From: an uncultured bacterium
GTDB lineage: Bacteria; Chloroflexota; UBA5177; JANWHV01
NCBI GenBank assembly: GCA_963827235.1
Contig: CAWHAE010000009.1
Span: 288,001-352,000 of the forward strand
Length of the DNA stretch: 64,000 bases
Direction of reading: 5' to 3'
Below are positions 11,586 to 54,327 of the stretch, one piece after another. Position numbers and translations under genes: made by a program. Under the pieces are notes generated by a model. It saw only the letters and a list, made by a program, of their open reading frames with translations. It had not been told where the DNA came from and made no database searches. Position 1 is the stretch's first letter; each line of letters opens with the position of its first letter.

Positions 11586-12707
11586 ATGCCTGCATATTCG
11601 CTGTTCGCAGATGCCGATTGGCCAAGATTGGAGCGCGACTGGACGGCATGGTGGGCGGGGGGGCTCGAACGACCGATAATCGTGCTGGAGACACGTGCAC
11701 CGCGCCCTGGTATCGACTGGAATACGTTCGACCCGTTCCTCACCCAGTTTCCGCCGGAGACGCCGGTCGACTCGATGCTTGATCACAGCCAGCTCCTGCT
11801 CGACGCGACACACTATTACGGCGATGCCTACCCCAAATGGGACTCGAACTTCGGCGCCGGCAACGTCGCCGGATTTCTGGGCGCCGCATGGCAGCACAGT
11901 CATGACGTAAGGACGACCTGGTTTCACGGACCGCCCAGTGCATCGCTGGCAGAGATCGACGTGCGGTTCGATCCGGCCAATCCCCTCTGGCAAACGGTTC
12001 GGGCAGCCACGGAACGAGCCATAGAGCGCTGGGCGGCCCAGTGCACAATCGGCTATGCCGATCTGGGCGGCAACCTGGATGTGCTGGCCAGCCTGCGCGG
12101 CACGCAGAATCTGCTCTACGACCTCTACGACGCTCCTGAGGAGATCGAGCGGCTCTGTCCACGGATCACGAATGCCTGGCTACGCTACTACGACGTGTTG
12201 GATGAGCTCATCGCGCCGACGCCGAAGGGATCGTCGTGCTGGGCGCCGCTCTGGTCTCCCACCCGAGCCTACATGCTGCAGAGCGACTTCTCGTACATGG
12301 TGTCGCCGGCGGTCTTCGAACGCTTCATACTGCCCGATCTCGAACGCTGTTGCGCGGCGATCGACTACCCCTTCTATCACATGGACGGCAAGGGACAGCT
12401 CAAACACCTGGACATGCTGCTCTCGATCGACAGGCTGCGCGGTATCCAGTGGCAGCCCGGCGACGGCGCCCAATTGGCCGATCAGTGGCCGGAAGTGCTG
12501 CAACGTATCCGCGCCGGGGGAAAGCTCTGCCAGATCTACGTCGATAGAGAAGGAGCTTTCAAGGTTGCCCGGGAGCACGGCGGAAAGGGATTCGTGTTGT
12601 CCATCGTGGAACAGCTCAGCGATAACGACGCGACAGAGTTCATGGAGGCCTTCGAGCGAGAGTTCGCGCCCAATAAGCGGGCCGCGGCGATCCGGCCAGG
12701 CATGTGA
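11586..12707 (+). CDS. URO-D/MtaA-like TIM-barrel protein
   Basis: DLGGNLDVLASLRG, LQSDFSYMVSP, YHMDGKGQLKHLD, IQWQPG; AAAAGGAGGAG RBS. Confidence 0.75.
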   Translation: MPAYSLFADADWPRLERDWTAWWAGGLERPIIVLETRAPRPGIDWNTFDPFLTQFPPETPVDSMLDHSQLLLDATHYYGDAYPKWDSNFGAGNVAGFLGAAWQHSHDVRTTWFHGPPSASLAEIDVRFDPANPLWQTVRAATERAIERWAAQCTIGYADLGGNLDVLASLRGTQNLLYDLYDAPEEIERLCPRITNAWLRYYDVLDELIAPTPKGSSCWAPLWSPTRAYMLQSDFSYMVSPAVFERFILPDLERCCAAIDYPFYHMDGKGQLKHLDMLLSIDRLRGIQWQPGDGAQLADQWPEVLQRIRAGGKLCQIYVDREGAFKVAREHGGKGFVLSIVEQLSDNDATEFMEAFEREFAPNKRAAAIRPGM

Positions 12708-39319: not shown

Positions 39320-41827
39320 TCAGCGCGCTGCGCCCTGCCGGTGCATGCGGGCGTGCAGGGCGGCCATCGCCTCATGGAAGGGTCGCTCCAGATATGCCTG
39401 GTGATCCGCTTCACCATGCGCATGCGTGATGCGGTGCGATGGCTCCTGCCGGCTGCGGGTGCGAATATACTCGAGGCTGCCCTCGAGCAGCGTCAGCATA
39501 TAGGTCGCCACCTGGGCATCGTGGAGCCACCAGTCTCCACCTACCGCGATGTAGATCGGTGACGTATGGGCCATGATGCCCCGTTGCCAGCAGTCGAAAT
39601 GGCGGACCGCGTCGACGTAGCCAGGTCCACCCACCCGCGCCGCTAGCCAGGTATGGCTGCTGATGGTGAGACGGGTCCTCAGGCAGAGCCGGCGCGCGCC
39701 GCCCGCCTGCTCGGTCACCGCCACCACGCGACCCTGTTGCACGATCTCCAGTCGGTGCATAGGGAGGATCGACTCCGCCCAGGCCTTTACCTCCACTGTG
39801 CCGCCGTTCCCTGGCAGGGCGATACTGTCGCCAATCTGGTACCCGTCCACCGTGAAATCGAGGATCGGGCCCCCACTGTGGAAGGTGCGCCCGGCCCGCA
39901 GATTGCGGCACCAGCTCTCATAGCTGAACTCCTCGTCGGGGATGCGCACGTACGTGCGATAGAGCCCCACCGGCACGTCCGCCGACATCTTGTCGGTCCC
40001 GCCGACTAGCGGCAGCCGATAGCCGCAATTGAGATAGCGGTAGTACTCCAGGTGCTCGTACAGCCCGCACGTGGTCATCTCCAGCGCATCGGCGCGACCG
40101 GTGGCGATCAGGGCCGCCGGCTCGCCGTTGGGCTCCGGCGCGTGCGGAACGACCACGGTCCCACCCTGCTGGTGGCACTGGTCGGCCCAGTACGCCAGGG
40201 TGGTCTCCAGCGTGCCGCCCATCTCTGCTTCCTCCGGCCCGTCGGAGCACCAGGGCAGCACCGGTTCCCGCAAGCCGAGCAGCGAGAGGTGCCCCAGCAT
40301 GTGCTGACGGTTCTCCTGCGATGCGTAGACGATGGTCCTCCCATCGGCCGAGTGAAGCGGTCGCCCGATAAACTCCTCGGTGCTGGTGAATAGGTGGCCC
40401 CACTGCGACTGCAGGAGGTTGACCACGTTCAGGTCCTCGCCGCGCGCCTCCGTCTGCGCTCCGATCGTCGAGAGGAAGTGTACGTGGGTGTCGCCGCTAA
40501 AGTAGCCGCGCGCGTTCATGTCGCACCAGCGCCGGAGCCGCAGCTGCAAGCGCTGCTGGCCCGGCTCGATGCGCACGGACGTGCGAAGCGGCTCATACTC
40601 GAAGCCGCGGGCGACGTCGACCATCACCTCGCCGCGCGGCAGCCAGCCTTCACAGCGGCCGTCGATGTAGGCGTAGGTCGCCTGCCCAAGCTGGACATCA
40701 CCGCCTATGTCGATGTGCCAGGTGCCCATGCCGCCGTTCAGGTGGGCGTGGTGGCCGTACGGCGCATAGGGTACCCCGTCGGCCGAGCGAAAGTGGATAC
40801 GGCACGGAACGGGTAGGCCGGTGGCATCGTCGACGACTTCGGTCCGCACCCAATTGCGCCCCGCATCCGTGATCGCGACCTGCAGGCGGGGTGACGGGGT
40901 CAGACTCCCTACACGCTCCAGGTCGGCCCAGCACACTCGGCCTAGCTCCTCGTCGCGTAGGGTGACCCGCAGGATAGCGGACGGCGTAGCAGCTACCCGC
41001 ACGTAGGCGGGGCTGCTGCCCGGGTTCACCGGGACCCCAAAGCCGGGCAGCGCGGAGCCCACGGAAGTGCCGGCGGTCTCGGCGGGCAGAGCGTAGGGAA
41101 AGCCGGCGATGCCACGATCGACCTGCACGCCAAGGGCGAACGGCTGCGCGGCATCGGTAGCCTGTGGCAGGGTGATGGTGACTGTAGTGGCGCCACGACG
41201 GCAGAACGGCTCCTCCGCCAGATGCCCCAGCGTCACCGCTGCCAGCAGAAAATCCGGGCCGGCCGGCTCGACCATAAGGCGGCGGATCGGGCGCTCTGGC
41301 TGTGGATTGGACCAAGCCCACAGATAGTACGCGAGTGGACGGCTCTGCTCCACCTCGGTCAGCCGCGCGCCGGCATCGCCCCAGGACCCGGCAGAGCGGG
41401 CGGGCAAGCCGTCGGGCCGATCGGGCACAGCCAGGAAGGGTAGCTGGCCCCAGCGCGTCGGTACCGTGGCAATCTCGAAGCGCTCGCGGATCGGCAGACG
41501 GGTGCTGCCGCCGTCGGCAAACTCGATGACGTAGTGGGCGACGATCTCGCCCAACGGCCCGCCCGCCAACAGGTGCGAAGCCAGTAGTCGATGAACGAAT
41601 AGCACGTGCCGGGCGGTCCGGTCGCCGACCGGGATGGCAAGAGCCGGCGCGCTGCCATCCAGCCGGACCAGGCAAGCGCCGCCACTGCCGCTCGACGGCC
41701 CGATCTGAAACGGGATCCCATGGAAGGCCTGCAGGCCGGTGGGGAGTCTGTCCGCGCTCGCCAGGCAGTCCGCGCCGGCGTTGCAGACGGCTGATAGGTC
41801 AACCGGGGAATAGTCGGCTTCGACCAT
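39320..41827 (-). CDS. CehA/McbA-family (PHP-like) metallohydrolase
   Basis: RGFEY, SGDTHVH, QENR..LGH, GGTD, GRTF..GP, AHTSPIY; GGAGG before ATG 41827. Confidence 0.8.
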   Translation of the reverse strand: MVEADYSPVDLSAVCNAGADCLASADRLPTGLQAFHGIPFQIGPSSGSGGACLVRLDGSAPALAIPVGDRTARHVLFVHRLLASHLLAGGPLGEIVAHYVIEFADGGSTRLPIRERFEIATVPTRWGQLPFLAVPDRPDGLPARSAGSWGDAGARLTEVEQSRPLAYYLWAWSNPQPERPIRRLMVEPAGPDFLLAAVTLGHLAEEPFCRRGATTVTITLPQATDAAQPFALGVQVDRGIAGFPYALPAETAGTSVGSALPGFGVPVNPGSSPAYVRVAATPSAILRVTLRDEELGRVCWADLERVGSLTPSPRLQVAITDAGRNWVRTEVVDDATGLPVPCRIHFRSADGVPYAPYGHHAHLNGGMGTWHIDIGGDVQLGQATYAYIDGRCEGWLPRGEVMVDVARGFEYEPLRTSVRIEPGQQRLQLRLRRWCDMNARGYFSGDTHVHFLSTIGAQTEARGEDLNVVNLLQSQWGHLFTSTEEFIGRPLHSADGRTIVYASQENRQHMLGHLSLLGLREPVLPWCSDGPEEAEMGGTLETTLAYWADQCHQQGGTVVVPHAPEPNGEPAALIATGRADALEMTTCGLYEHLEYYRYLNCGYRLPLVGGTDKMSADVPVGLYRTYVRIPDEEFSYESWCRNLRAGRTFHSGGPILDFTVDGYQIGDSIALPGNGGTVEVKAWAESILPMHRLEIVQQGRVVAVTEQAGGARRLCLRTRLTISSHTWLAARVGGPGYVDAVRHFDCWQRGIMAHTSPIYIAVGGDWWLHDAQVATYMLTLLEGSLEYIRTRSRQEPSHRITHAHGEADHQAYLERPFHEAMAALHARMHRQGAAR

Positions 41828-41985
41828 CGCTGGCACCTCCTGTGGCCTACACGCTACTTCTGCTAGAGTAGCACGTGGACACGGCACAGCCTGCCGCCAG
41901 CGTGTGTGGGCACCTCAGGTTGCAGGGCGGGTGAATCATGCATCACACCACACGCGATACTCCTCAGCCATGGGCGAACCTCGCC

Positions 41986-43532
41986 TCACAGTGCGCCGGC
42001 CTCATCCATGGTCATGGCACGCCCATCCGCCCACGCTGCCTCGAACGCCACGGGGCCCAACGCCGCGCGGAGCGCCGTGACGGCGGTTTCAATGCGGGGG
42101 CGTTCGTTCGGCGGCAGACGGAGTCCGATGATCTCTCGACCGGCCTCGTGCAGGGCCGCTTCCTCGGCCAGCAGGAGGTAGTAGTGCGCGTGCGCGCGTT
42201 GCGCGGCAGCCAGAGCACCGCCGCTATCGAGCCGTTCAAGCCCGAGCTCGCGAATTGTCTCCAGCATGCCGATACGCGTCTCGCCATCGGCCAACTCGGT
42301 GCGCTACACCAGGCTCTTCTCCACCAGGGAGTGGAGTCCCGCCAGCACATCGCCGGTGTGGGCGTCCGTTGCCCTGACCAGCGCGGCGACCGCTTCCGGC
42401 GCGCAGCCGCTGCTGAATACGCTCAGGAGCTGGAAGAGCGTCTGCTCGCCTGGATCGAGTAGCTCGTAGCTCCAGGCGATCGTGGCGCGCATTGTCTGCT
42501 GGCGTGCAGGAAGGTCGCGCGCCCCCGATCAGTACGTCGAGCCGTCGCTCCAGCCGCGCCAGCAGCGCGTGGGGCGAGTACAGGCGGACCTGGGCAGCAG
42601 CCAGCTCCAGGGCCAGCGGCAGTCCTTCCAGACGCGAGCAAACCGCGGCCACCGTGGCGGCGTTGGCCGGAGTGATTGCGAAGTCCGGGTGGTGCGCGCT
42701 CCGCGAAGAGGGCTAGCGAAGGATAGCGCGCAAGGACGTCGAGCGGCGGCAGGTGCTGCAGGTCGGGCAGCGGCAGCGGGGCACCGGAACCTCGCGTTCC
42801 CCGCGCAGACGCAGAGCGGCACTGCTCGTGACCAGCACGTGCAGACCGGTACAGACTTCGAGCAAGCGTGCCAGCTCGGGGCCGGCAGGCAGCAGGTGCT
42901 CAAAGTTGTCCAGCACCAACAGGAGCTGCTTGGCGCGCAGCTGGCACGCCAGCTCCTCGACCACGGGGCCATTGCTTTCCACGCGCAAGCCTACACTCTG
43001 CGCCAGCACGGCCGGCAGCAACGCTGGGTCCTGCAGGCCCGCCAGGGGGACAAACACCACGCCGCCGGCGTAGGCCCGGGCAAGTCCCGCTGCGGCGGCC
43101 AGCGCCAGCCGTGTCTTGCCCACTCCGCCAGGGCCCGTCAGCGTGATCAGCCGAGCTCTCGACGGCCCAGCCGGCTCCAGGAGCAGGAGGTCGGTCAGGC
43201 CCTGAAGCTCCGTCTCGCGACCGAGCAGCGGGGTCAACGGCATCGGCAAGGTATCGCGAGGGCCGTCATGCGTGCCGGAACGCGCCGGTCCCGCGCCACG
43301 CCGCTGGCACTCGGCCACGAACGCGATCTGCTGCTGTCCGGACAGGCCCAGGGCGGCAGCCAGCCGCAGGGCACTCTCACGTTGCGGTGAGCGATTGATG
43401 CCGCGTTCCAGATCGCTGATACCGCGTACGCTGAGTCCGGCCCGTTCCGCCAGCGCTTCCTGAGACACACCGGCCTCCAGGCGGTACCGGTCGCAGCACG
43501 TCGCCGAACGATCCGTGCGCTGTGCCGGTCAT
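41986..43532 (-). pseudogene. Frameshifted XRE-HTH + NB-ARC regulator with the TPR region deleted
   Basis: SQEALAERAGLSVRGISDLERG, GPGGVGKT, LDNFEH, LEGLPLALELAAA, WSYELL and MLETIRE lie in different frames. Confidence 0.85.
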
Positions 43533-43967: not shown

Positions 43968-44600
43968 CTAGAGTTGCCTGTCATCTCCGGCCATGCCTGC
44001 ACGGTCGTCGCGGCGCCGGTGCCGGAGTCGCTCGACAGCCATTGCCGTCACGATAATACCGAGGAGGATCCAGAAAGCCGCGCGCATGGCCAGCAGCAGG
44101 ACCTGGCTGGCCAGGCGCGGCAGGTTCGTCCAGAACAGCGCGCTAGCCGAGACGATGTGCAGCTGCGCGCTGTCGAAGGTGAGCCACTGCCGGCGAGCCG
44201 GGTAATAGTACTCGACGGTGACCTTGTGCCACCCCAGCTGCTTGAAGCGGTGCGTCACCGCATACCCCTTGGCGACGGCGCCATCGTCGAACACCCAGCG
44301 GAACGGCGTCCGCAGCATCTCGGCCGAGAGCGAGCTCCCTACCTTCGCCACATCCTCGCTCAGGTGCAGGCTGTCGCCCGGTGCTGCCGCCGGCAGCGTG
44401 AACGGCGCCCAGTGAGCAGCATCCACCTGAGAAGGCGTGCCCTCGGTGAGGCTGGCCGTGGTGCCGTTCATCGCGATGGAGGCAATGCCATTCAGGCTGC
44501 AGGCCCGGGCAGTTGCCGCCTGCCCTGCCACCGCCGCGAACGTGAGCAGCACGCACGCCAGCACCCGGCCGGGCGAGAGGCGAGCGACGTGAGCAGTCAT
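43968..44600 (-). CDS. Secreted PKD-domain protein, paralog 1 (with C-terminal TM anchor)
   Basis: Signal ARA|CSLNG, WAPF, FRWVFDDG, THRF..G.HKVTV, C-terminal hydrophobic helix plus Arg tail. Confidence 0.8.
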   Translation of the reverse strand: MTAHVARLSPGRVLACVLLTFAAVAGQAATARACSLNGIASIAMNGTTASLTEGTPSQVDAAHWAPFTLPAAAPGDSLHLSEDVAKVGSSLSAEMLRTPFRWVFDDGAVAKGYAVTHRFKQLGWHKVTVEYYYPARRQWLTFDSAQLHIVSASALFWTNLPRLASQVLLLAMRAAFWILLGIIVTAMAVERLRHRRRDDRAGMAGDDRQL

Positions 44601-44640
44601 GGTCCGAGCTCCTTCGGCGAGGCAACGCAGGTCTTGGCAG

Positions 44641-45132
44641 TCAGGGATGCGTGGCGTGCGGGGCGGGTGCTATGGTGATCGTCACCTGGTCGAAGGCGAT
44701 CCACTGCTTCGTCGGCGGCCAGTACGCCTCGACCACGATGCGCCGGCGGCCCGTGCGGGCATAGGCGTGCTTCACGGTCCAGCCTGTCGCGGTGCTGCCG
44801 TCGCCGAACTCCCACCGCCACGGCCGCTGCATCGCGGCCGGGACGAGTGACTTTACCACCTCGTTCCGAATCTCGGTGAATACGATCGCGCGCTCGGCGC
44901 CGTAGCCGTTTGGTAGCGAGAACGGCGCATACGTCAGGAGCTGCGCCGACGTCGTGGGCGGATCGGTCGTCAGCTGATCGAGGCGGCCGTCGGCGGTCAG
45001 CGAGGGCACGTTGTCCAGCGAGCAGGCGCCGGCGCGGCCAACGGAGAGCAGCGATCCTATGGCCAGGACGGCCGCGATGACAGCCGTAGAGATGAGCGTG
45101 TGTCGCCGGGTGCCGGCTCCCAGGTTCTTCAC
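44641..45132 (-). CDS. Secreted PKD-domain protein, paralog 2
   Basis: GTG 45132; signal AGA|CSLDN, YAPF, WRWEFGDG, KHAY. Confidence 0.8.
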   Translation of the reverse strand: MKNLGAGTRRHTLISTAVIAAVLAIGSLLSVGRAGACSLDNVPSLTADGRLDQLTTDPPTTSAQLLTYAPFSLPNGYGAERAIVFTEIRNEVVKSLVPAAMQRPWRWEFGDGSTATGWTVKHAYARTGRRRIVVEAYWPPTKQWIAFDQVTITIAPAPHATHP

Positions 45133-45136
45133 CTGC

Positions 45137-46279
45137 TCATGCCTCGAGCAGCGCCCGGATGGTGGTGACGACACGCGACGGCAAGAACGGCACGTCATAA
45201 TAGGCGCGCAGCCGGCCTGCCGGGTCGATCAGGAACAGTCCGGCCTGGTGCACGATCGCGGTCGTCGGCTTGAAAATGGGCGGAGGCGCTTCCACGTCGA
45301 CCCCATAGGCGCTCCATATGCGAGACAGCACGGGTCGCGGGGCGGTCAGGTAGTGCCAGTCGCCGCCCGGCCAGCCTGCATCCCGCGCGAATTGCGCCGT
45401 CGCGCCGGGGCTATCCAGCTCAGGCTCCACGCTGACCGCTACGATGCTCAGCCTGGACGCATCCTTGCCCAGGTCGTTCCGCACCAGGGTGAGGGCCTTG
45501 CCCACCAGCGGGCATTGCTCCTTGCACAGTGCACTGATGAACGTCAGCGCCACCACCCTGCCGCGCAGTTGCTCGGGCGTGATCAGCGTGCCGTGCTGAT
45601 CGCGCAGGGCAAAGGGGTGGGCTACCGCGGCGGGCCGATACACCGCGTCGGCGGCGATGGCCGGCGCACCTCGCTGTGCCGGCTGGTCGGCGACCAGCGA
45701 CGGCTGGAGGAGCGTGGTGCAGCTCGGGCACTGAATGGCTCCGATCTGCGCCATGCCGTCGCGCACGGTGCCGGCGTCCAGCGGCCCGACCCACTCCGCC
45801 TGCAGACGTCCTGCCTCGTTGATGAAGAAGCTGGTAGGCCGCGCGCCTACGTCATAGGACCACGCCACGCTCTGTCGCGCATCCACGCCGACGGCATAGG
45901 GGATATGGGCCGCGCGGACGAATGCGCGAGCGGACGCGACTGTGTCGCCGCCGGTGGCCACGCCGACCACGCGGATACCCTCCGCCTGGTAGGCGTGCAC
46001 CGCCTGGCGCAACACGGGCAGCTCGTCGAGACAGTCCGCACACTGCGTGTTGAAGAAGTTCAACAGCACGGGATGACCGCGGAATGCGCGCAGCGAGACG
46101 CCGGCACCCGCACCGGAGGCCTGGGGGAGTGTGAAATCGGGCGCCGGCGGGACCAACGCGGCCGGTGCCTGGTGGGCCGCGAACGCCACCACGCCCCCAA
46201 GTGAGGCCACACAGACGACCATCACCGCCGCGAAAACGCGAAGGCGCGTCCCGCGCAAGCGTCGTAGCCAACCAATCAT
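45137..46279 (-). CDS. TlpA/redoxin - SCO1/SenC fusion
   Basis: APDFTL, LLNFFNTQCADC..ELP, RPTSFFI; SCO CKEQCP, WHYLT, VHQAGLFLIDPAG. Confidence 0.88.
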   Translation of the reverse strand: MIGWLRRLRGTRLRVFAAVMVVCVASLGGVVAFAAHQAPAALVPPAPDFTLPQASGAGAGVSLRAFRGHPVLLNFFNTQCADCLDELPVLRQAVHAYQAEGIRVVGVATGGDTVASARAFVRAAHIPYAVGVDARQSVAWSYDVGARPTSFFINEAGRLQAEWVGPLDAGTVRDGMAQIGAIQCPSCTTLLQPSLVADQPAQRGAPAIAADAVYRPAAVAHPFALRDQHGTLITPEQLRGRVVALTFISALCKEQCPLVGKALTLVRNDLGKDASRLSIVAVSVEPELDSPGATAQFARDAGWPGGDWHYLTAPRPVLSRIWSAYGVDVEAPPPIFKPTTAIVHQAGLFLIDPAGRLRAYYDVPFLPSRVVTTIRALLEA

Positions 46280-46442
46280 GACGGGTCGTCCCTTTGTATC
46301 GGGCAGCGCTTGTGTGGGGCTCTGATCCGCAATATAGCAGGTTCCCGCTTGCTATGCTTGTCATGTCGCGCCGCCCCCGCCCGTGGGGTGGCGCCGGGCG
46401 CTTGCAGCGCAGCCGCTCGTGCCGTAGTGTGAGGTCAGGTGT

Positions 46443-46925
46443 ATGGGTATGGGTGTGCGCGAGAGGAGAGAAGCGTTGGCACGGTCTGCGTGGCAACCGG
46501 CTGCAGTGATTGGTTGTGTGGCAGTGCTGCTGATCGCGTCGGGACTGCGCTCCGTGGCCGCCTGCGACATCGACGGCCTGCCGTCATTGACGGTCGATCA
46601 CACCCTCGTCCTCGTGAACAGCGAGCAGCCGACCAGCCCGGCCACACTCAAAGTCTGGGCGCCGTTCGTCCCGCCCTTCAGCCTGATCGCAACGCGCACC
46701 TATACGTTCGCCGAGATCCGCCAGCGAATTCCCCTGACGCCTGAGGCCTTCGAGAATTCCTGGCGCTGGGCGTTCGGCGACGGGACGCCGCCGGCACGCG
46801 GGGACAGCGTGCGGCACGTCTATCGGCGGCCCGGCGTGTACAGGGTCACCGTCGCTGCCTACTTCCCCTCCCACAAGATCTGGTACACGTTCGACGCTCT
46901 CCAGGTGCGCGTGACGGTGGGCTGA
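46443..46925 (+). CDS. Secreted PKD-domain protein, paralog 3
   Basis: Signal VAA|CDIDG, WAPF, WRWAFGDG, RHVYRRPGVYRVTV. Confidence 0.82.
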   Translation: MGMGVRERREALARSAWQPAAVIGCVAVLLIASGLRSVAACDIDGLPSLTVDHTLVLVNSEQPTSPATLKVWAPFVPPFSLIATRTYTFAEIRQRIPLTPEAFENSWRWAFGDGTPPARGDSVRHVYRRPGVYRVTVAAYFPSHKIWYTFDALQVRVTVG

Positions 46926-47046
46926 CCCCGGCCCGGCCACCACGCCTGAGCGCGCGCGAACCGGGCCGGGTGGGCTCCCGGCGGCGAGCCGGACCCGCTC
47001 GAGGTCACCGGTACGCGCGGACGTTATCGCCTGCGATGAGCGCATC

Positions 47047-50000
47047 TCAGGGATTGTCGACGGCCGCTTCGTTCGAGCCCACGGGCGATGGCACTACGGC
47101 CACCACGCGATTGTCTGCCGTGCGGATGATCGTCACGGCGTTGCCGCCGATGCTGGCCACGTAGACGTACTTGCCGTCCGCCGTCACGTCGGGCCCGTGC
47201 GGCTGTGCCGCCACCGGGATCGTGGCGATCACCTTGCGCCGCGCGGCGTCGATCGCGCTCATCTCGTTGCCGAGCTGGTCGGCCACATACACCGTGCGCC
47301 CATCCGGCGCGGCCACCAGCAGCGCCGGTCCCTTGCCTACCGGAATGGTCGCCACCACGCGCAGGGTGCGCTCGTCGATCACCGACACATTGCCGGCAGT
47401 CTGGTTGGCCACCCAGACTTCGTGACGAGGCCCATCCACGGCCACGCCGTAGGCGCCCGGCGCGGTGATCACGGTGCGCCCCGGCCTGAGCGTGGTGGTG
47501 TCGACGGTGTAGACCCAGGCACCGCCGGCGCAGGCCACATACAGGGTCTTGCCATCCTCCGCGATGTCGATGCCGTGCGGCTCGAAACACGTGCCGTCGG
47601 GGAACTCGATCTGCCGGCTCGTGCCGGTCCTCAGATCGAGCACGGAGAGATCGTTGGAGCGGAAGTTGGTGACGAAAGCGCGCCGGCGATCGGGCGTGAA
47701 CACCACGTGGGCCGGCCCAAGTCCCACGGCAAAGGTGCGCACTACCCGCATGCCGCGCAGATCGATCTGCGTCACCGTGCCGGGATCGGCGCCGAAGTTG
47801 GTGACGAAGGCATACGGTGTGCCGTCGAGCACGTCCACGCCGTGCGCTTGCGCGCCCGTGTGCAGGATGGACCCGCCCAGCTTGCGGACGCCGTTGGAGC
47901 CCATCTCCGTCACCAGCACCGTGTAGGGCAGAGCGCGGGCAACAGCCAGGTTATAGGCCTGGCTCAGATTCGCCGAGCGCGCCGGCAGGCCGGCGGGGTT
48001 CGTGCCGGTTTGCGCTGTGAGCAGGTGCATGGGCCCGCTCAGCGGCACATAGTAGGTGAACTGGCGCAACGTGACCCAGGCACCACTCCGCTGCGCCTGA
48101 ATGGTCAGCCCCCAGCGGCCGTTCATCGGCGCGAACGCGTCGCGCACCACCCAGCGACCGCCGCCGAGCGCCGTGGCCGGATAGGTGAGGACGCCCATGT
48201 CCATATCCAGCGACTGCGAAAGCATTCGCACCGCCGAGGCCTGCCCGATGCCGCCTAGCGTGAAGGTGTTGGGCGCGCTGATCAGCCCGGGCGTGGCGAC
48301 AATGCTCACGGCAGCCGAACCGGACTGGTCGAGAAAGGAGGCGCCTGGTCCGGCGATGAACGTGAACGGAAGATCTCGGTACTCGCCGGGATCGTCGCGC
48401 GTACGCACCATCACGTCGGCGCGCCACTGCCCGGCCTGGACGAGGTCGCCGGTCCCGTTGTAGCCGCCGGCAGCCGGCGTGGTCTCCACGAAGGTGTAGC
48501 CCAGTGATGATTGGCCCGGCACGCTCAATCGGATGCGCACCTGGCCGTCGGTCACCTTCCGGCCGCGCTCGGCCACGAGCACGCGAAACGTCGTGCTGCC
48601 TAGGGCCGGCGGCCTGATCGTCAGCGTCGCCTGCAACACGCCCGCTGTAGCACTGCCCGTGATCGCGCCCGGCACCGGTACCGAGGGCGTGGCCGGAGCC
48701 ACGGGCGTGCCGGTCGTCGAGACCACGCTGCTGAACACCGCGGCCGCCGGGGCCGTCTGCCCCATCAGTGCCACGCACAACAGGATGAGGGCGCCGAGCG
48801 CCGGCTCGATGCGCAGGCGCAGGGCAAGCGATGCATACCCGCGTTCGGCCGCCGGTGAGTCGGCCGGCAACCCGCGCAGTCGGGGACGGGTGACAAACAC
48901 GTGGGAAGCGCTCAGCAGCACGATCACACCGATCAGTGCCAGCTTGACCAGCAGAAACCGGCCGTACAGAGTACCGGCGAGTTGATCGAAGCTACCAAGG
49001 TGCACCTGGGCGTTGAACATGCCGGTCACGGCAGCCGCGGCCACCGCGATGTACGCGGCAGGCGAGAAACGGTCCAGCAGGTGCAGGAAGGCTCGCCGGA
49101 GAGCAGACCCGGCCCGGTCGCCGGCCGCCAATGCGTGGAGCGCCGGCAGCAGGGCCAGGGCGATCGCCGCCATGCCGCCGACCCAGACGGCCATGGCGAT
49201 CAGGTGCAGCCAGTCAAGCAGCACGGAAGTGGCCACCATTTGCTGCACCGATGCGGCGTGCCCGGAGAAGGCCAGAGCCAGCAAGTAGGCCAAGCCCAGC
49301 GCGGCGGCGGTCCAGCCGGCCAGGACGCTTGGCTCACCGGCCGCCGCTCTGCCGGGCACCTGACCGCTCGCCGATCCGCGACGCGCGCCCACGACCTCAG
49401 CACGCAGATAGCGGCTCATGCCGGTGACCAGGCGTGATGCCCGGCCGGCCGGGGCGCCGCTGAGAACCAAGAGCGTCACGAAGGCCAGCAGCATGCGTGC
49501 CAGCCAGTAGGTGCCATAGCGCGCGCTCAGGATGGCGTCCAGCGTGTTCGCCGACACCATGCCGCTCCAGCCGCCGGCGCCGTAGGCCTGCGTCTCCAGC
49601 TCCAGCAGCGACGTCACCAGCGCAGCCAGCAGGCCCAGGCGCGCCGTCAGTACACAGCGACGCCCGGCAGCCCTGCAGAGCGAGGCCACCGCGCCTTGAC
49701 GCGTCGCCCGTGTCGACGGGAACAGCACCAGGATCTGCAGTGCCAGGGCCCCGGTCCAGAGCGCCGACGCCGCCAGCACCAGCCAGTGCGCCAGAGCCGC
49801 GGCCACCGCCGGGCCGTCGAGCGTAGGGTTTTGGGGCGCGGCGATGGCGCCCGAGGCGGCGCTCGGCGCCACGGCGCCGCTGCCGCCGGCAGTGAAGGTG
49901 TAGAAGCCGTGCAGCACGTGGCCGTCCAGCGCCGAGTCGCTGGTCCAGTAGACCGAGTAAACCCCATCGGGGAGCGCTGCCAGCCTCACATCTAGCTGTT

Positions 50001-50265
50001 CGCCGTTCGCCGGATCCACGTGGCCGGTATCGCCGTTGACCTGCCGGCCCTGAGCGTCGCGGATCACGATGCGGGAGAGTGCGGAGTTGAGGGCCTCGTC
50101 GAACCAGAAGCGATAGGTGGCGGCCTTCACCAGGACACGGCTGTCGGGCGCCAGCTCGGCGCGCACAAGGTGAGCGTGCGCTGCCGCCTGTCCGGGCAGC
50201 GCGAACAGCGCGAACAGCGCGAGCGCCAGTGCGCACGCACCGAGTAGCAGGCGGCGGACGGACAT
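47047..50265 (-). CDS. CopC-CopD-YtkA/FixH-like-YVTN beta-propeller fusion
   Basis: AAA|HAHL and DGH (CopC); GHA, HLIAMAVWVGG, YGRFLLVK (CopD); MDMG; repeated IPVG..P...PDG..VYV. Confidence 0.88.
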   Translation of the reverse strand: MSVRRLLLGACALALALFALFALPGQAAAHAHLVRAELAPDSRVLVKAATYRFWFDEALNSALSRIVIRDAQGRQVNGDTGHVDPANGEQLDVRLAALPDGVYSVYWTSDSALDGHVLHGFYTFTAGGSGAVAPSAASGAIAAPQNPTLDGPAVAAALAHWLVLAASALWTGALALQILVLFPSTRATRQGAVASLCRAAGRRCVLTARLGLLAALVTSLLELETQAYGAGGWSGMVSANTLDAILSARYGTYWLARMLLAFVTLLVLSGAPAGRASRLVTGMSRYLRAEVVGARRGSASGQVPGRAAAGEPSVLAGWTAAALGLAYLLALAFSGHAASVQQMVATSVLLDWLHLIAMAVWVGGMAAIALALLPALHALAAGDRAGSALRRAFLHLLDRFSPAAYIAVAAAAVTGMFNAQVHLGSFDQLAGTLYGRFLLVKLALIGVIVLLSASHVFVTRPRLRGLPADSPAAERGYASLALRLRIEPALGALILLCVALMGQTAPAAAVFSSVVSTTGTPVAPATPSVPVPGAITGSATAGVLQATLTIRPPALGSTTFRVLVAERGRKVTDGQVRIRLSVPGQSSLGYTFVETTPAAGGYNGTGDLVQAGQWRADVMVRTRDDPGEYRDLPFTFIAGPGASFLDQSGSAAVSIVATPGLISAPNTFTLGGIGQASAVRMLSQSLDMDMGVLTYPATALGGGRWVVRDAFAPMNGRWGLTIQAQRSGAWVTLRQFTYYVPLSGPMHLLTAQTGTNPAGLPARSANLSQAYNLAVARALPYTVLVTEMGSNGVRKLGGSILHTGAQAHGVDVLDGTPYAFVTNFGADPGTVTQIDLRGMRVVRTFAVGLGPAHVVFTPDRRRAFVTNFRSNDLSVLDLRTGTSRQIEFPDGTCFEPHGIDIAEDGKTLYVACAGGAWVYTVDTTTLRPGRTVITAPGAYGVAVDGPRHEVWVANQTAGNVSVIDERTLRVVATIPVGKGPALLVAAPDGRTVYVADQLGNEMSAIDAARRKVIATIPVAAQPHGPDVTADGKYVYVASIGGNAVTIIRTADNRVVAVVPSPVGSNEAAVDNP

Positions 50266-50311
50266 ACTAACGCTCCCTTCGCGCAAGAGGCGCTCGGTTT
50301 CCATGGAAACG

Positions 50312-50341
50312 CGCCACCAGGAGCGCGTCCTCCTGGTGGCG
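50312..50341. terminator. Intergenic hairpin after copC
   Basis: 12-bp arms CGCCACCAGGAG / CTCCTGGTGGCG; no U-tract. Confidence 0.4.
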
Positions 50342-50356
50342 GCTCCGGACGCTCGA

Positions 50357-50743
50357 TCAGACGACTGAGAAAGTGAACCACCCCCCGGCGTGGTGACCGT
50401 CGTTGGCCGAGATGGTGTACCAGATCAAGGCATACGTGCCCTTGGCCAGCTTGGGCACGGTCATGGTCATCTCCATCGCGTTGGAGAAGGAGACCTGGCT
50501 ATCTCCGTTATCGTCCTGACCATGATCGCCGGTGGTCTCGAAGATGCCCATAAAGCTCCCCTTCGGAGCGACTCCCTCGGCGAAGAAGCAGCTGACTGTC
50601 TTGGGCATGGCCTTGAGCTTGGCGCCGGGCGCAATGCTGCACTTCTGCAGGCTGGCGTGAGCCAGAGCCACACGCGGCGCCAGGGCGCTCATGCCCAGGA
50701 CCAGGGAGGCCGCGGCCAGCCAGCGGGTCAAATGGATACGCAT
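50357..50743 (-). CDS. copC: CopC-family copper-binding protein
   Basis: Signal ALA|HASL, GTY...W...S.NDGH; AGGAG RBS. Confidence 0.85.
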   Translation of the reverse strand: MRIHLTRWLAAASLVLGMSALAPRVALAHASLQKCSIAPGAKLKAMPKTVSCFFAEGVAPKGSFMGIFETTGDHGQDDNGDSQVSFSNAMEMTMTVPKLAKGTYALIWYTISANDGHHAGGWFTFSVV

Positions 50744-50840
50744 GGACGTTTCTCCTGATTTCTGTTCTCGTTCGGCATAGGTTTGTCGCGAGCGTGCAAC
50801 GCGGCCGTTAGTGGTTCGTCAACTATGAATGCTCGCATTC

Positions 50841-50888
50841 CCCGCGACCGCAGTCGCCCAACTGCTGCCATGCGCCCGCGCTCGCAGG
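50841..50888 (+). repeat. Twin-hairpin dispersed repeat, copy 1
   Basis: CCCGCGACCGCAGTCGCCCAACTGCTGCCATGCG...TCGCAGG recurs at 60897. Confidence 0.8.
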
Positions 50889-51072
50889 CCGCGCCTCTAC
50901 GGCAATGATTGGTTGTTGACAGACCACTGGTGCGTGGCATCGTGGCGGGATTTGTGATAGCCAAAGACCGTGCTCCACGCGGGGCAGTCGCGGGCGAGCC
51001 ATGTTCCGGCCTTCCCGCTTGCCTGAACCGTGCTGGCTTATACGCCGCCTCGCTCGTGCGGCGCGGCGACGG

Positions 51073-51846
51073 TCAGATCGGTGGCGGGCGCGAAAGCACT
51101 CCCGGGCCGCCCAAGAGGCCGCTCGGGGCGAGGGGCGGCGCCGGCGGGAAGGCCTGGCCCAGCGGTATCTGCAGCGCCTGGCTGAGCAGCCGGCGCAACG
51201 CGGTGATCGCCGCCTGAAGAGTCTCGAAGCGGCGCTCCAACCGCCAGACCAGCGCCGCGAGTAGCAACGCGACCGCCAGGTGCACGGGCAGCAGCGGAAC
51301 GGCGCTCTGCACCGCCATGGCCATGACTACTCCATGCATGTGTGTGGAGACGGTCATGGGCATCGACTGCTCAGCCAGTGCGTACAGGCCGGCCTGGACG
51401 CCGAGCAGCGGCAGCAAGAGCGCCAGCAGCCTGCCTGGATGGAGCGGCGCTCGTGCCGCCGGCGGCCGAGCCGCGACATGCAGGCACCGTGCCGTCTGCG
51501 TGAGGCGGTGCCGCTGGCCCGCGAGCCTCTGCAGCTCGCGAAACAGCGCCAGCAGCGTCAGCAGGGCGGCGGCGATCACTACCAGGAGCCCGCCTCGAAC
51601 CGGACAATGCGCCAGCATGAAGGCGACCGAGGCGGGTCGACCGTTCACACCGTCCAGGCCCAGATGGTATTCGACGACGTGGACGAGCGCTGCACCGACG
51701 CTGGCCAGCAGCAGCAGCGCGCCGGCAGAGAGGACCGGTCCGGCAGGTCCGCTCCCGGCGCGGACCCGCGGCAACGGCAGCCACGCAGCCGGTACGGCTC
51801 GCAGAGCTGACGGTGGCGGTGCGGCACGAGACCAGTACATACTCAC
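51073..51846 (-). CDS. Membrane protein with His/Met/Cys motifs and C-terminal RPPP
   Basis: About 4 TM segments; HVVEYH, AHCP, MPMTVSTHMHGVVMAM; ends SRPPPI. Confidence 0.7.
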   Translation of the reverse strand: MSMYWSRAAPPPSALRAVPAAWLPLPRVRAGSGPAGPVLSAGALLLLASVGAALVHVVEYHLGLDGVNGRPASVAFMLAHCPVRGGLLVVIAAALLTLLALFRELQRLAGQRHRLTQTARCLHVAARPPAARAPLHPGRLLALLLPLLGVQAGLYALAEQSMPMTVSTHMHGVVMAMAVQSAVPLLPVHLAVALLLAALVWRLERRFETLQAAITALRRLLSQALQIPLGQAFPPAPPLAPSGLLGGPGVLSRPPPI

Positions 51847-52980: not shown

Positions 52981-53098
52981 GGTCTTGTGGCGGGCGCGGT
53001 TGCTCCGGCAGGGTGTTTGACGCGCCGGAATGCGTCCGTCGTACAGACCATCGATCGCCGCGGCGCAAGTACCGGCAGGCAAGGGAGGGATTGGATTC

Positions 53099-53470
53099 GT
53101 GCACAAGGTTGCTACTGTTGCTTCATCCCTTTTCAGTCGAATCACCCACTGGCTCGTCATCCGGAATGGAGCCCGCTACGTCCTTGCCGGCACGATCGCG
53201 CTCGCCGCGCTGGGGGCCGTGGTCGCCAACCAGGATCTGCCCAAGCCGCCTGCCATCTCCTCGGTCCTGCCGATAGGCGACAACGATCACGGGCACTACG
53301 GCTGGTATGGTTGGCACAGGCACCATCACGGGGGCTGGCAAGGCCGCGACTACTACTTCGGTCACCAGCAGACGTACGACGGCACCTGGTCGCAGGGATC
53401 CTGGGGCGGAAACGGCTACGTCGGTCAGGGCGGCAGCGGCTCAACCGGTCAATCCGGCAGCGGCTACTGA
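53099..53470 (+). CDS. Small membrane-anchored His/Gly/Trp/Tyr-rich protein
   Basis: GGGAGGG RBS + GTG; one TM segment; DHGHYGWYGWHRHHHGGW; downstream hairpin. Confidence 0.65.
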   Translation: MHKVATVASSLFSRITHWLVIRNGARYVLAGTIALAALGAVVANQDLPKPPAISSVLPIGDNDHGHYGWYGWHRHHHGGWQGRDYYFGHQQTYDGTWSQGSWGGNGYVGQGGSGSTGQSGSGY

Positions 53471-53541: not shown

Positions 53542-53835
53542 GTTGCGCGGCGGCCCGGCGCGTGCGACGCTGAGAGCCCGCCAAGAGCACGGTCCTATAT
53601 CCAATTGTCTGGAGCAGGAGCGGCTTCCTGCGTACCACGTCGGCCCTCGGACGGTTCGTGTCCGCCGCGCCGAAACCTTGCTGGGCTCCCTTGGCCGCCA
53701 GCCAACAGACCACTGCGTCACGATATCCACGTGCGTCCCACTCGCACGAGCGGCAGGCAAAGTGGCAAGATGAGAGTGTATTCTTAAGTTCAATTGCACG
53801 CGACAGGGGAAGCCGCGGTATCACGGTGGGATGCG

Positions 53836-54327
53836 ATGGCAGAAGACAAAGGCACGGCGTCGATTCAGCCGGGAGGAGCGTACGCAGCGCCGGAGTCCAT
53901 GCTCTCCGCCGTCTCCTTCCTGCGCGACCACGGCTTGCGCGTCACCCCGCAGCGACTGCTGCTGGTGGAAGTCGTGCGCGGTCTGTCCGGCCACTTCACC
54001 GCCGACCAGGTCTACAACAGGGTGCGCGCCGCCTACCCGGGCGTGAGCAAGGTGAGCGTCTACAGAGGCCTCGACACCCTGCGCGAGCAGGGCCTGGTCA
54101 CCTGCACCGAGCTCGGCCAACCGTCTGCCGAGTACGAGTGGAGCGGCGCATCCCGGCACCACCACCTCGTCTGTACCCACTGCGGCTACCAGCAGAACGT
54201 GCCCGATGGCGCCATGGACATGCTGCGGCAGCGCCTGGCCTCCGACTACGGCTTCCAGGCCACCATCGACCACATCGCGATCTGGGGCGTCTGCGAAGCG
54301 TGCCACCAGGCACAGCACAAAGAGTGA
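53836..54327 (+). CDS. Fur family regulator (Fur/Zur/PerR subgroup unresolved)
   Basis: GLRVTPQR, HFTAD, SVYRGL, HHHLVCTHCG, GVCEAC. Confidence 0.92.
   Translation: MAEDKGTASIQPGGAYAAPESMLSAVSFLRDHGLRVTPQRLLLVEVVRGLSGHFTADQVYNRVRAAYPGVSKVSVYRGLDTLREQGLVTCTELGQPSAEYEWSGASRHHHLVCTHCGYQQNVPDGAMDMLRQRLASDYGFQATIDHIAIWGVCEACHQAQHKE

Follow-up and report, generated by a model that had tools for sequence, protein, structure and literature searches.

Cysteine-first PKD-domain proteins encoded beside Sco and CopC/CopD genes in one class of Chloroflexota are candidate extracellular copper or thiol helpers

Three paralogous PKD-domain proteins in a copper gene cluster

We analysed a 64,000-nucleotide window (C9:288001-352000) from the genome of an uncultured Chloroflexota bacterium (G000, 8.0 Mb in 21 contigs and 95.9% complete, hereafter the own genome), relatives of which appear in public records under Ktedonobacterales or Chloroflexota. 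The open reading frame (ORF) listing of window region 43968-51846 holds seven genes, to which domains were assigned with Pfam and NCBIfam profiles. Three of them, pkdA, pkdB and pkdC, encode secreted paralogs with a PKD-like domain, and the other four encode a TlpA-SCO fusion, a YcnJ-like fusion, a stand-alone CopC and a membrane protein ending in RPPP (Table 1).

A sequence-only reading of this region had proposed that the three paralogs, each with a cysteine directly after the predicted signal-peptide cleavage site, belong to a new metal-trafficking system. Its description of the genes was confirmed. All three ORFs are present, and the motifs A↓C-[SD]-[LI]-[ND]-[GN]-x-x-S (the arrow marks the cleavage site), [WY]APF, [WF]RWxF[GD]DG and YxPxxxxWxxFD align in all three proteins. 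The residue after the cleavage site (Cys1) is the sole Cys of each mature chain, and only pkdA carries a C-terminal hydrophobic anchor (mature residues ~134-155), with none in pkdB or pkdC. The pkdB and pkdA genes lie downstream of the TlpA-SCO gene on the same strand, pkdC is divergent from it, and the CopCD fusion, CopC and RPPP genes lie beyond.

Pairwise identity among the three paralogs is 29-34% over the full-length alignment, and their signal peptides end in ARA↓C (pkdA), AGA↓C (pkdB) and VAA↓C (pkdC). In its longest form the pkdB ORF runs 62 nt into the SCO gene. Since the public gene call for pkdB (P0183) is 163 aa long, translation probably starts at the GTG at 45130-45132, 4 nt past the SCO stop codon, and with that start the TlpA-SCO, pkdB and pkdA genes look like one operon.

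Table 1. Genes of the copper cluster and flanking features (positions are those of the window)
Feature	Position	Strand	Cys1 codon	Description
pkdA	43968..44600	-	44499-44501	210 aa; signal peptide ...ATARA↓C, PKD-like domain, C-terminal membrane anchor, basic tail
pkdB	44641..45198	-	45022-45024	soluble paralog; longest ORF 185 aa; signal peptide ...GRAGA↓C
TlpA-SCO fusion	45137..46279	-		membrane-anchored; TlpA/ResA-like thioredoxin domain (CADC) and SCO1/SenC domain (CKEQC and His)
pkdC	46443..46925	+	46563-46565	soluble paralog, 160 aa; signal peptide ...RSVAA↓C
YcnJ-like fusion	47047..50304	-		1085 aa: CopC, CopD membrane domain, YtkA/FixH-like domain, C-terminal YVTN beta-propeller
stand-alone CopC	50357..50743	-		128 aa; His29 right after ALA↓ cleavage site
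RPPP protein	51073..51846	-		257 aa, multi-pass membrane protein with RPPP C-terminus
uncharacterised ORF	39320-41887	-		855 aa
STAND-type regulator	41986-43468	-		HTH_3 and AAA_16/NACHT
membrane-anchored protein	53030-53470	+		146 aa
Fur-family regulator	53794-54327	+

A lineage-restricted family with short and long forms

A family hidden Markov model (HMM), with which pkdA scores 168 bits, was run on the own genome, the class and a sample of the phylum. The own genome encodes a fourth full paralog (G000:C16:218721-219116), which lies between an Amidase_2 gene and the gene of an InhA-like protease, away from copper genes. A fifth copy (G000:C16:221493-221645) retains its signal peptide and mature residues 1-30, after which comes an unrelated Cys-rich tail, and is probably a broken gene. 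In locus L006 these two C16 paralogs occupy 9686-10123 and 12374-12700. A 676-aa ORF downstream of the C16 paralog was rejected as an antisense artefact, the real gene being that of the InhA-like protease on the opposite strand.

Seven of the 21 species genomes of the class, tallies of which take in the unpublished genome G018, have a family match at E up to 1e-10. All four further genomes of the genus do (3-7 matches each), as do one of four genomes of a second family and one of 12 of a third. In the phylum sample, matches at E up to 1e-12 were found in 16 of 401 genomes. Nine of these 16 genomes lie outside the class and have one copy each, in an open frame of 395-593 aa. These long forms consist of a Cys-first domain, three ordinary PKD domains, a transmembrane (TM) helix and a cytoplasmic tail rich in Arg and Pro. 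They come, as single copies, from the nine out-of-class genomes and from five loci of Ktedonobacterales metagenome-assembled genomes (MAGs) (long-form loci L007 7902-9344, L009, L012, L013 and L124-L132).

Among the best 80 loci of a general scan of genome contigs, five were family members (L007, L008, L009, L012 and L013), all from Ktedonobacterales MAGs, and the rest were generic PKD domains. By the family HMM, no member was present among the best 80 loci of a scan of metagenome contigs with P0010. A profile search of 1.84 billion representatives with a 17-row alignment gave matches dominated by giant multi-PKD proteins, at profile positions ~90-123 only, and was uninformative about the family.

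We recovered 42 N-termini from 16 genomes, and one further ORF was cut at a contig end. The alignment and maximum-likelihood tree contain 37 mature domains, leaving out four fragments and one near-duplicate. In this tree, which has a midpoint root only, the long forms (14 rows) separate from the short forms (23 rows) with support of 100/100. Within the short forms, a TM-anchored clade that includes pkdA (11 rows, 84/87) and a pkdC group (6 rows, 87/82) stand out, and the pkdB-like rows form no resolved subgroup. The only public names for these proteins are "PKD domain-containing protein," "PKD repeat protein" and "hypothetical protein." We conclude that the genes form a lineage-restricted, conserved and previously undescribed family.

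An invariant Ala-Cys junction at the processing site

Position -1 is Ala in all 42 family N-termini. Position -3 is Ala in 27, Val in nine, Thr in three, Ile in two and Leu in one, and position -2 varies widely (L 10, Q 8, R 8, A 3, W 3, C 3, G 2, and N, I, K, M and F once each). Between the h-region and the Cys lies a polar c-region of 5-8 residues, in which Pro or Arg is frequent. The Ala-Cys junction is retained down to 22-30% identity, and metagenomic members that have an N-terminus share it too, one of them having Ser at -1. Conservation of this junction in all 42 N-termini is more than chance. Cys1 is the sole Cys of the mature chain in 37 of the 42; the five exceptions are a second Cys in the anchor or tail (three proteins), an extra Cys at position 53 (in G005) and a broken fragment.

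The sequence-only reading had allowed that the Cys might simply be lipidated. By a test that is pattern-based only, the strict lipobox [LVI][ASTVI][GAS]C fits just three of the 42 N-termini, pkdC (VAA↓C) among them. The residues after the Cys are also conserved, as C-x-[LI]-[DN]-x-x-[PA]-[ST] in the short forms and C-G-L-x-x-x-x-T-M-x-A-N in the long forms, and they are confidently modelled (see below), unlike a lipoprotein tether; lipidation of Cys1 therefore appears unlikely. A polar c-region of this kind is expected ahead of a signal peptidase I site. Given the invariant Ala-Cys junction, the variable position -2 and the few lipobox fits, we read the site as a putative signal peptidase I site, cleavage at which would leave a free N-terminal Cys.

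The own genome has the machinery for lipoproteins (two Lgt and one LspA), and a crude genome-wide scan found a few textbook examples such as LAG↓CGGSSS, LAA↓CSAGG and VAG↓CGGGQSS. Of its 73 SBP_bac_1 matches, 71 were inspected; in 66 of these no candidate Cys follows the hydrophobic part of the signal peptide, and the signal is of the AxA type or Tat-like. As an observation in its own right, this SBP_bac_1 pattern is uncommon in what is presumably a monoderm lineage, and it is relevant to the way its envelope keeps binding proteins in place.

A PKD-like fold with two unexplained invariant residues

Profile matches to Pfam PKD families are limited to profile positions ~29-66. Against cut-offs of 27 bits for PKD_4 (PF18911) and 23.5 bits for PKD (PF00801), pkdC passes both (38.3 and 37.4 bits), pkdB passes that of PKD_4 (30.6 bits) and pkdA falls under both (23.7 and 20.2 bits). 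Structures were modelled with AlphaFold2 (AF2). Full-length pkdC, modelled from 17 sequences, reached a mean predicted local distance difference test (pLDDT) score of 78.4, with low confidence near the cleavage site, and mature pkdB, modelled from 37 sequences, reached a pLDDT of 93.5 and a predicted template modelling score (pTM) of 0.86, with a mean pLDDT of 84 over residues 1-10.

A Foldseek search with the full-length pkdC model returned the PKD-like domains of ColG and ColH, the best match being the ColG PKD domain (E 4.5e-5). VIA-align of the mature pkdB model against 48,161 chains placed a carbohydrate-binding module (CBM)-associated module first (2c4x; Z 9.3, root-mean-square deviation [rmsd] 2.5, 85 aligned residues), ColH s2a second (4u7k; Z 8.9, rmsd 2.4, 81 aligned, model residues 3-120 on chain residues 689-770) and an archaeal S-layer PKD domain next (Z 8.8, rmsd 2.9, 80 aligned). 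Matches among the top 50 rows were PKD- or Ig-like with no cupredoxin, a result that is compatible with a more distant likeness to cupredoxins. The models thus predict that pkdA, pkdB and pkdC share one PKD-like beta-sandwich fold. In a sequence search of solved structures only the PKD core matched (profile positions ~59-109): the core WxFGDG...HxY...GxY is common to the family and solved PKD domains, and the first 60 residues are family-specific, with no detectable similarity to solved PKD domains.

Six columns are invariant over the 37 mature domains: C1, E51, W71, D75, G76 and H86. W71, D75, G76 and H86 make up the canonical PKD core, and a W/F-G-D-G turn and a His are described among the structural elements of PKD-like domains (PMC4356367). 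By this alignment, Cys1 and Glu51 are the sole invariants that PKD architecture leaves unexplained. In the AF2 secondary structure Glu51 ends strand B, the strand ahead of the WRW strand. In ColH s2a a Ca2+ ion is reported to tie the N-terminal linker (Asn685 and the Ser686 carbonyl) to Asp713/Asp715, which follow directly on strand B, and to the strand-F residue Asp754 (PMC4356367). Judged by the alignment ranges, Cys1 would fall one or two residues from the s2a ligands Asn685/Ser686 and Glu51 in the region of Asp713, and by homology Cys1 may lie close to Glu51 in space. The sequence search of solved structures gave no alignment of Cys1 or Glu51 to known Ca2+ ligands. An acidic residue (E/D) in strand F is kept in the long forms and not in the short forms.

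Short forms are linked to SCO1 and CopC/CopD genes

We examined the surroundings of family members by tblastn of the window proteins against fetched loci and by Pfam searches of called genes. The sequence-only reading would have lost its ground had homologs shown no link to copper genes. Of 13 places with flanks long enough to assess, eight, from three families of one class, have short forms adjoining SCO1 or CopC/CopD genes. Five of the eight, besides the window itself, lie in the four other genus genomes. In G001 two contig ends (C61 and C332) share one TlpA-SCO gene, giving the order pkdA-like, RPPP, CopC, CopCD fusion, TlpA-SCO and pkdB-like. At G002:C353 a stand-alone SCO gene is surrounded by four copies, three full and one partial. 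In G003, contig C234 has a TM-anchored copy 8 nt after a stand-alone SCO gene, with a TlpA-like gene 5 kb off, and contig C475 has RPPP, CopC and CopCD fusion genes with a convergent copy. G004:C8 has CopC, CopCD fusion and TlpA-SCO genes with a pkdB-like copy. The remaining two are sole copies from other families. In G005:C12 (second family), genes for a YtkA/FixH-propeller protein and SCO are followed by a copy that overlaps the end of the SCO gene, and in G012:C95 (third family), the copy is divergent from genes for a cupredoxin, a CopC-CopD-YtkA protein and a CopC, with two CopC counted beside it. In the G012 locus, a small plastocyanin/azurin-like cupredoxin (L115 1777-2190) and a BNR/YCF48-like propeller are encoded directly after CopC-CopD-YtkA.

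The other five assessable places have no sco/cop gene nearby. The fourth paralog of the own genome (G000:C16) has, besides the Amidase_2 and InhA-like protease genes, a resolvase gene nearby. Another paralog (G004:C15) stands beside a transposase gene, with AXE1 and aldehyde dehydrogenase genes, and a pkdA ortholog (G004:C11, locus L113) stands with genes for a KatG-like peroxidase, CbiM, an ABC ATPase, a Fur-family regulator and a Ser/Thr kinase. In G002:C8 and G003:C518, the latter with a flank of only 1.7 kb on one side, there is an aldo/keto reductase gene on one side of the copy and divergent FMN_bind, ApbE and RnfD/NqrB-like genes on the other. Seven further places, on contigs of 2.0-4.1 kb, are without a copper gene and too short to judge.

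By tblastn, the own genome has about four sco/cop loci in its 8 Mb, so the chance that a random gene lies within 10 kb of one is ~1%. The link recurs in three families, with both fusion and stand-alone SCO genes. We conclude that the family is tied non-randomly to Sco/CopCD genes in one class. In the literature covered, which excludes subscription-only papers, we found no paper tying a PKD domain to Sco or CopCD; the listed papers on N-terminal cysteines and copper dealt, by title and abstract, with lipoproteins or other subjects.

The long forms have a different setting. Several are flanked by an unnamed 480-aa gene on one side and YbeY and DAGK genes on the other, with NUDIX, GNAT and PAP2 genes nearby, and the rest lie among other housekeeping genes. 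Since the long forms have Cys1 and no copper context, the N-terminal Cys predates any copper association.

An add-on to Sco in part of the class

The supply of copper to oxidases outside the cytoplasm relies on small accessory proteins that vary by lineage, such as PCuAC, YcnI, PmoD, CtaK and YebY. Neither PCuAC (PF04314) nor DUF1775, the family of YcnI, is detectable in the 95.9% complete own genome. Across the 21 genomes of the class, PCuAC is present in none, DUF1775 in one (G003, which has the PKD family) and SCO1 in 19. We considered whether the PKD family has a distribution complementary to that of PCuAC or DUF1775 and rejected the idea, as those frequencies hold irrespective of the PKD family. 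With PCuAC in 0/21, the PKD family in 7/21 and SCO1 in 19/21 genomes, the family is an add-on in part of the class rather than a simple stand-in for an absent chaperone; at most SCO loci of the class a PKD-family partner is lacking.

A predicted complex with SCO was among the checks that the sequence-only reading had suggested. We modelled the SCO domain (16-row alignment) with mature pkdB (37-row alignment), using our own alignments for both. The pair scored 0.57 (runs of 0.57, 0.46 and 0.60), and the best of three controls scored 0.23. The runs agreed on at least 84% of contacts, and the pLDDT of the partner was at least 87. The tool's score mark is reached by 116 of 157 solved complexes and two of 215 mismatched pairs, counts that are rough when own alignments are used; at 0.60 or under, it is reached by 18 of the 157 solved complexes and by both of the passing mismatches. 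The prediction lends weak support to an interaction of pkdB with the SCO domain.

Comparison with known copper proteins

PCuAC/ECuC is the Cu(I) donor for Sco and CuA sites, and its His/Met ligand set is absent from the PKD family. None of pkdA, pkdB and pkdC gave a match to the PCuAC profile. What they have in common with PCuAC, as its setting is described, is that they are small secreted beta-proteins beside sco and copCD genes, in a comparable operon position (PMC8424229).

The nearest functional analogues are YcnI and PmoD. Removal of the signal peptide is reported to make a conserved His the first residue of YcnI, which has a cupredoxin-like ectodomain and a C-terminal helix; its Cu(II) site is described as the amino terminus, His27, Glu50 and a stacking Trp, and its neighbours are CopC/CopD (PMC8424229). 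YcnI is further reported to exchange Cu(II) with the CopC domain of YcnJ (10.1101/2025.05.23.655588), and the CopC-CopD-YtkA order of Bacillus subtilis YcnJ (PMC13344008) is that of the window fusion, which has an extra propeller. So far as YcnI is described in these sources, the PKD proteins resemble it in having a first residue exposed by cleavage, a beta-sandwich, a CopC-CopD-YtkA fusion next door, an acidic residue (Glu50 in YcnI, Glu51 in the PKD family) and, in pkdA, a C-terminal helix. They differ from it in that the first residue is Cys (42/42) and not His and that the fold is PKD-like and not that of the cupredoxin-like DUF1775; pkdA, pkdB and pkdC gave no DUF1775 (PF07987) match at E up to 0.1.

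With PmoD/AmoD, as characterised in PMC6189053, the family has in common a signal peptide, a beta-sandwich, a C-terminal helix, many paralogs and copCD neighbours, PmoD lying beside copCD and PCuAC. The copper site of PmoD is reported to be CuA-like and to bridge two chains, each contributing one Cys (PMC6189053). Unlike the PKD family, which has no Met/His motif after Cys1, PmoD is described as a cupredoxin with a Cx7MxHxnC motif and an internal Cys41. Since layout and neighbourhood are shared while fold, ligand motifs and sequence signal are not, the family belongs to neither the YcnI nor the PmoD family, and by predicted fold and motif its members are PKD domains.

Two further comparisons concern single features. 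The fold is that of the ColG/ColH PKD-like domains, and the family invariants Cys1 and Glu51 fall in the regions of the Ca2+ site as reported for those domains (PMC4356367). The DxD and strand-F Asp ligands of ColG/ColH are not kept in the short forms, and the ColG/ColH domains, unlike the PKD family, are internal modules without a free N-terminus or Cys. Cleavage at an AxA↓ site exposes the first residue in CopC (PF04234) as it would in the PKD proteins, and this site is common to the PKD paralogs and both CopC domains of the cluster; CopC differs in fold and family and uses a His1 brace, His1 being its metal-binding residue.

Possible roles of the N-terminal cysteine

Judged by their N-terminal Cys and their gene cluster, pkdA, pkdB and pkdC are good candidates for a new extracellular copper or thiol helper. 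The reading that we favour, though at somewhat less than even odds, is that the short forms are accessory partners of the Sco/YcnJ-like copper route that use Cys1, in analogy to YcnI and PmoD. The mechanism that we infer would run as follows. Signal peptidase I would cut after Ala-x-Ala and expose a free Cys1, normally the sole Cys, and Cys1 with the invariant Glu51 at the end of strand B would form the functional site. The class would have recruited short forms, soluble or helix-tethered, to its Sco/CopC-CopD-YtkA route. The most likely ligands for copper uptake would be the N-terminal alpha-amine and thiolate, perhaps together with Glu51, in a site to which a second chain or the CxxxC of Sco may contribute. 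Copper would then be passed to or from Sco and CopC, and the fused TlpA domain would keep the thiols reduced.

A more specific version of this proposal, which we consider doubtful, is that of a "mono-cysteine brace," in which the Cys1 alpha-amine and thiolate bind copper together with Glu51 on a PKD scaffold. This version would include an origin from the N-terminal Ca2+ site of PKD-like domains and a role that works with Sco without PCuAC. If true, it would make these proteins the first PKD-domain metallochaperones and would set a Cys-based equivalent beside the His1 braces known from CopC, YcnI and lytic polysaccharide monooxygenases (LPMOs).

Several observations weigh against a role in copper handling. 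Apart from the structural His86, the family has no conserved Met or His, with none within 10 residues of Cys1, and it has no second conserved Cys; a lone thiolate is a poor Cu(I) site. Five of the 13 assessable places have no sco/cop gene, and the linked places are not independent, six being in one genus. The long forms keep both Cys1 and Glu51 outside any copper context. Fourteen of the 21 class genomes are without the PKD family though SCO1 is present in 19, and the SCO-pkdB complex prediction is weak by the tool's own calibration. The interpretation in the sequence-only reading is thus partly supported: the family is real, is linked to sco/cop genes and is almost certainly not a lipobox family, and there are also unlinked places and long forms without a copper context. 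Of the two roles it had suggested, that of a Cu(I) carrier is a candidate, and that of a thiol-linked complex is equally open.

Among the alternatives, the proteins could be partners or clients in thiol redox chemistry, a reading that we think unlikely on balance. The lone Cys1 would make intermolecular disulfides with itself, a paralog or Sco that the TlpA-SCO protein reduces or isomerises, and the PKD proteins would be substrates or adaptors of an extracytoplasmic thiol system. In its favour are a single exposed Cys without an intramolecular partner and the tight coupling to a TlpA-SCO fusion with intact CxxC and CxxxC motifs in two thioredoxin folds. The weakly supported SCO-pkdB interface (0.57 vs. 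0.23) fits this role equally well. In addition, two unlinked TM-anchored paralogs, in two genomes, are divergent from the FMN_bind-ApbE-RnfD-like module described above, an extracytoplasmic flavin electron-transfer module (L116 10538-13143 in G002:C8; L122 2897-5075 in G003:C518), and these neighbours hint at a redox role for Cys1. Against it, the sole copy in G012 stands with CopC, CopD-YtkA and cupredoxin genes and no thioredoxin-fold gene, and the reading leaves the invariant Glu51 unexplained. Sco proteins, moreover, are primarily copper chaperones.

About as unlikely, in our view, is that these are structural or adhesive envelope proteins whose position in copper clusters is historical, with Cys1 serving attachment or oligomerisation and having no role with copper. 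PKD domains are usually binding or spacer modules, the long multi-PKD forms are single-copy and without copper context in nine further genomes of 401, and the paralogs disperse readily, as their numbers in the genus genomes and the copy beside a transposase indicate. This reading does not account for the recurrence of SCO or CopC/CopD adjacency in three families, with different SCO paralogs and with overlapping or 4-nt-spaced genes, when chance linkage is ~1% per gene.

Finally, that the proteins are ordinary lipoproteins, with the Cys modified by Lgt, the signal peptide cleaved by LspA and the PKD domain a generic surface module, is improbable: the enzymes are encoded, the invariant +1 Cys is exactly what a lipobox requires and several N-termini beyond the three strict fits (ALA↓C, VLA↓C, AGA↓C) satisfy relaxed versions, but Leu at -3 occurs once in 42, 21 of the N-termini have Q, R, K, N or W at -2, a polar c-region comes before the site, the ordered residues that follow form no G/S-rich tether of the kind seen in the clear lipoproteins of the own genome (LAG↓CGGSSS, VAG↓CGGGQSS), 25 of the 37 aligned members (11 short and all 14 long) are already membrane-anchored at the C-terminus, and most SBP_bac_1 proteins of this genome likewise have no candidate Cys.

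The proposed partnership with Sco bears on the question of how copper reaches Sco where PCuAC is missing, and the family offers a directly testable candidate that is small, soluble, has its sole Cys first and is coupled to Sco and a YcnJ-like importer. Should these proteins bind copper, they would add a new ligand set to the known N-terminal-residue metal sites and bring the PKD domain into metal handling; should they not, they would still be a conserved, unannotated family of Ktedonobacteria-like Chloroflexota.

Other genes of the locus

The TlpA-SCO fusion matches Pfam AhpC-TSA over residues 45-160 (2.1e-27) and SCO1-SenC over residues 221-356 (1.4e-20), and NCBIfam assigns it as ResA-like. 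The CxxC of its TlpA domain is intact, and the CxxxC and His of the SCO domain are invariant across 16 aligned SCO domains. An inverted-repeat search of the intergenic region between pkdC and the TlpA-SCO gene gave nothing operator-like.

In the YcnJ-like fusion, Pfam finds CopC (43-138), CopD (409-514) and a YNCE/Lactonase propeller, which NCBIfam matches as a YVTN repeat (5.5e-32); the YtkA segment (554-630) scores 22.9 bits, under the Pfam cut-off. His43 follows directly after AAA↓, and the Pfam CopC match begins at this residue. Likewise, the match of the stand-alone CopC (Pfam 7.6e-13) begins at residue 29, which is profile position 1.

The RPPP protein has no Pfam or NCBIfam family, and its ESM Atlas neighbours are all unnamed hypothetical clusters. 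It is encoded upstream of CopC in three genus genomes (the window; L119:586-1194; L123:5069-5755), and its conserved motifs, VHxxEYHLGL, MLAxCP and a Met-rich PM...M.M.G..M.M, are plausible candidate copper ligands.

Just beyond pkdA, the STAND-type regulator appears to be spread over three frames (ORFs 42713-43468, 42236-42652 and 41986-42294), as in a frameshifted gene or pseudogene. The coding signal of the 855-aa ORF that follows is strong, and a Pfam search at E up to 0.01 gave it no family. On the other side of the cluster, the membrane-anchored protein of 146 aa has a His/Trp/Tyr/Gly-rich tail and no Pfam family, and the gene of the Fur-family regulator lies just downstream of it.

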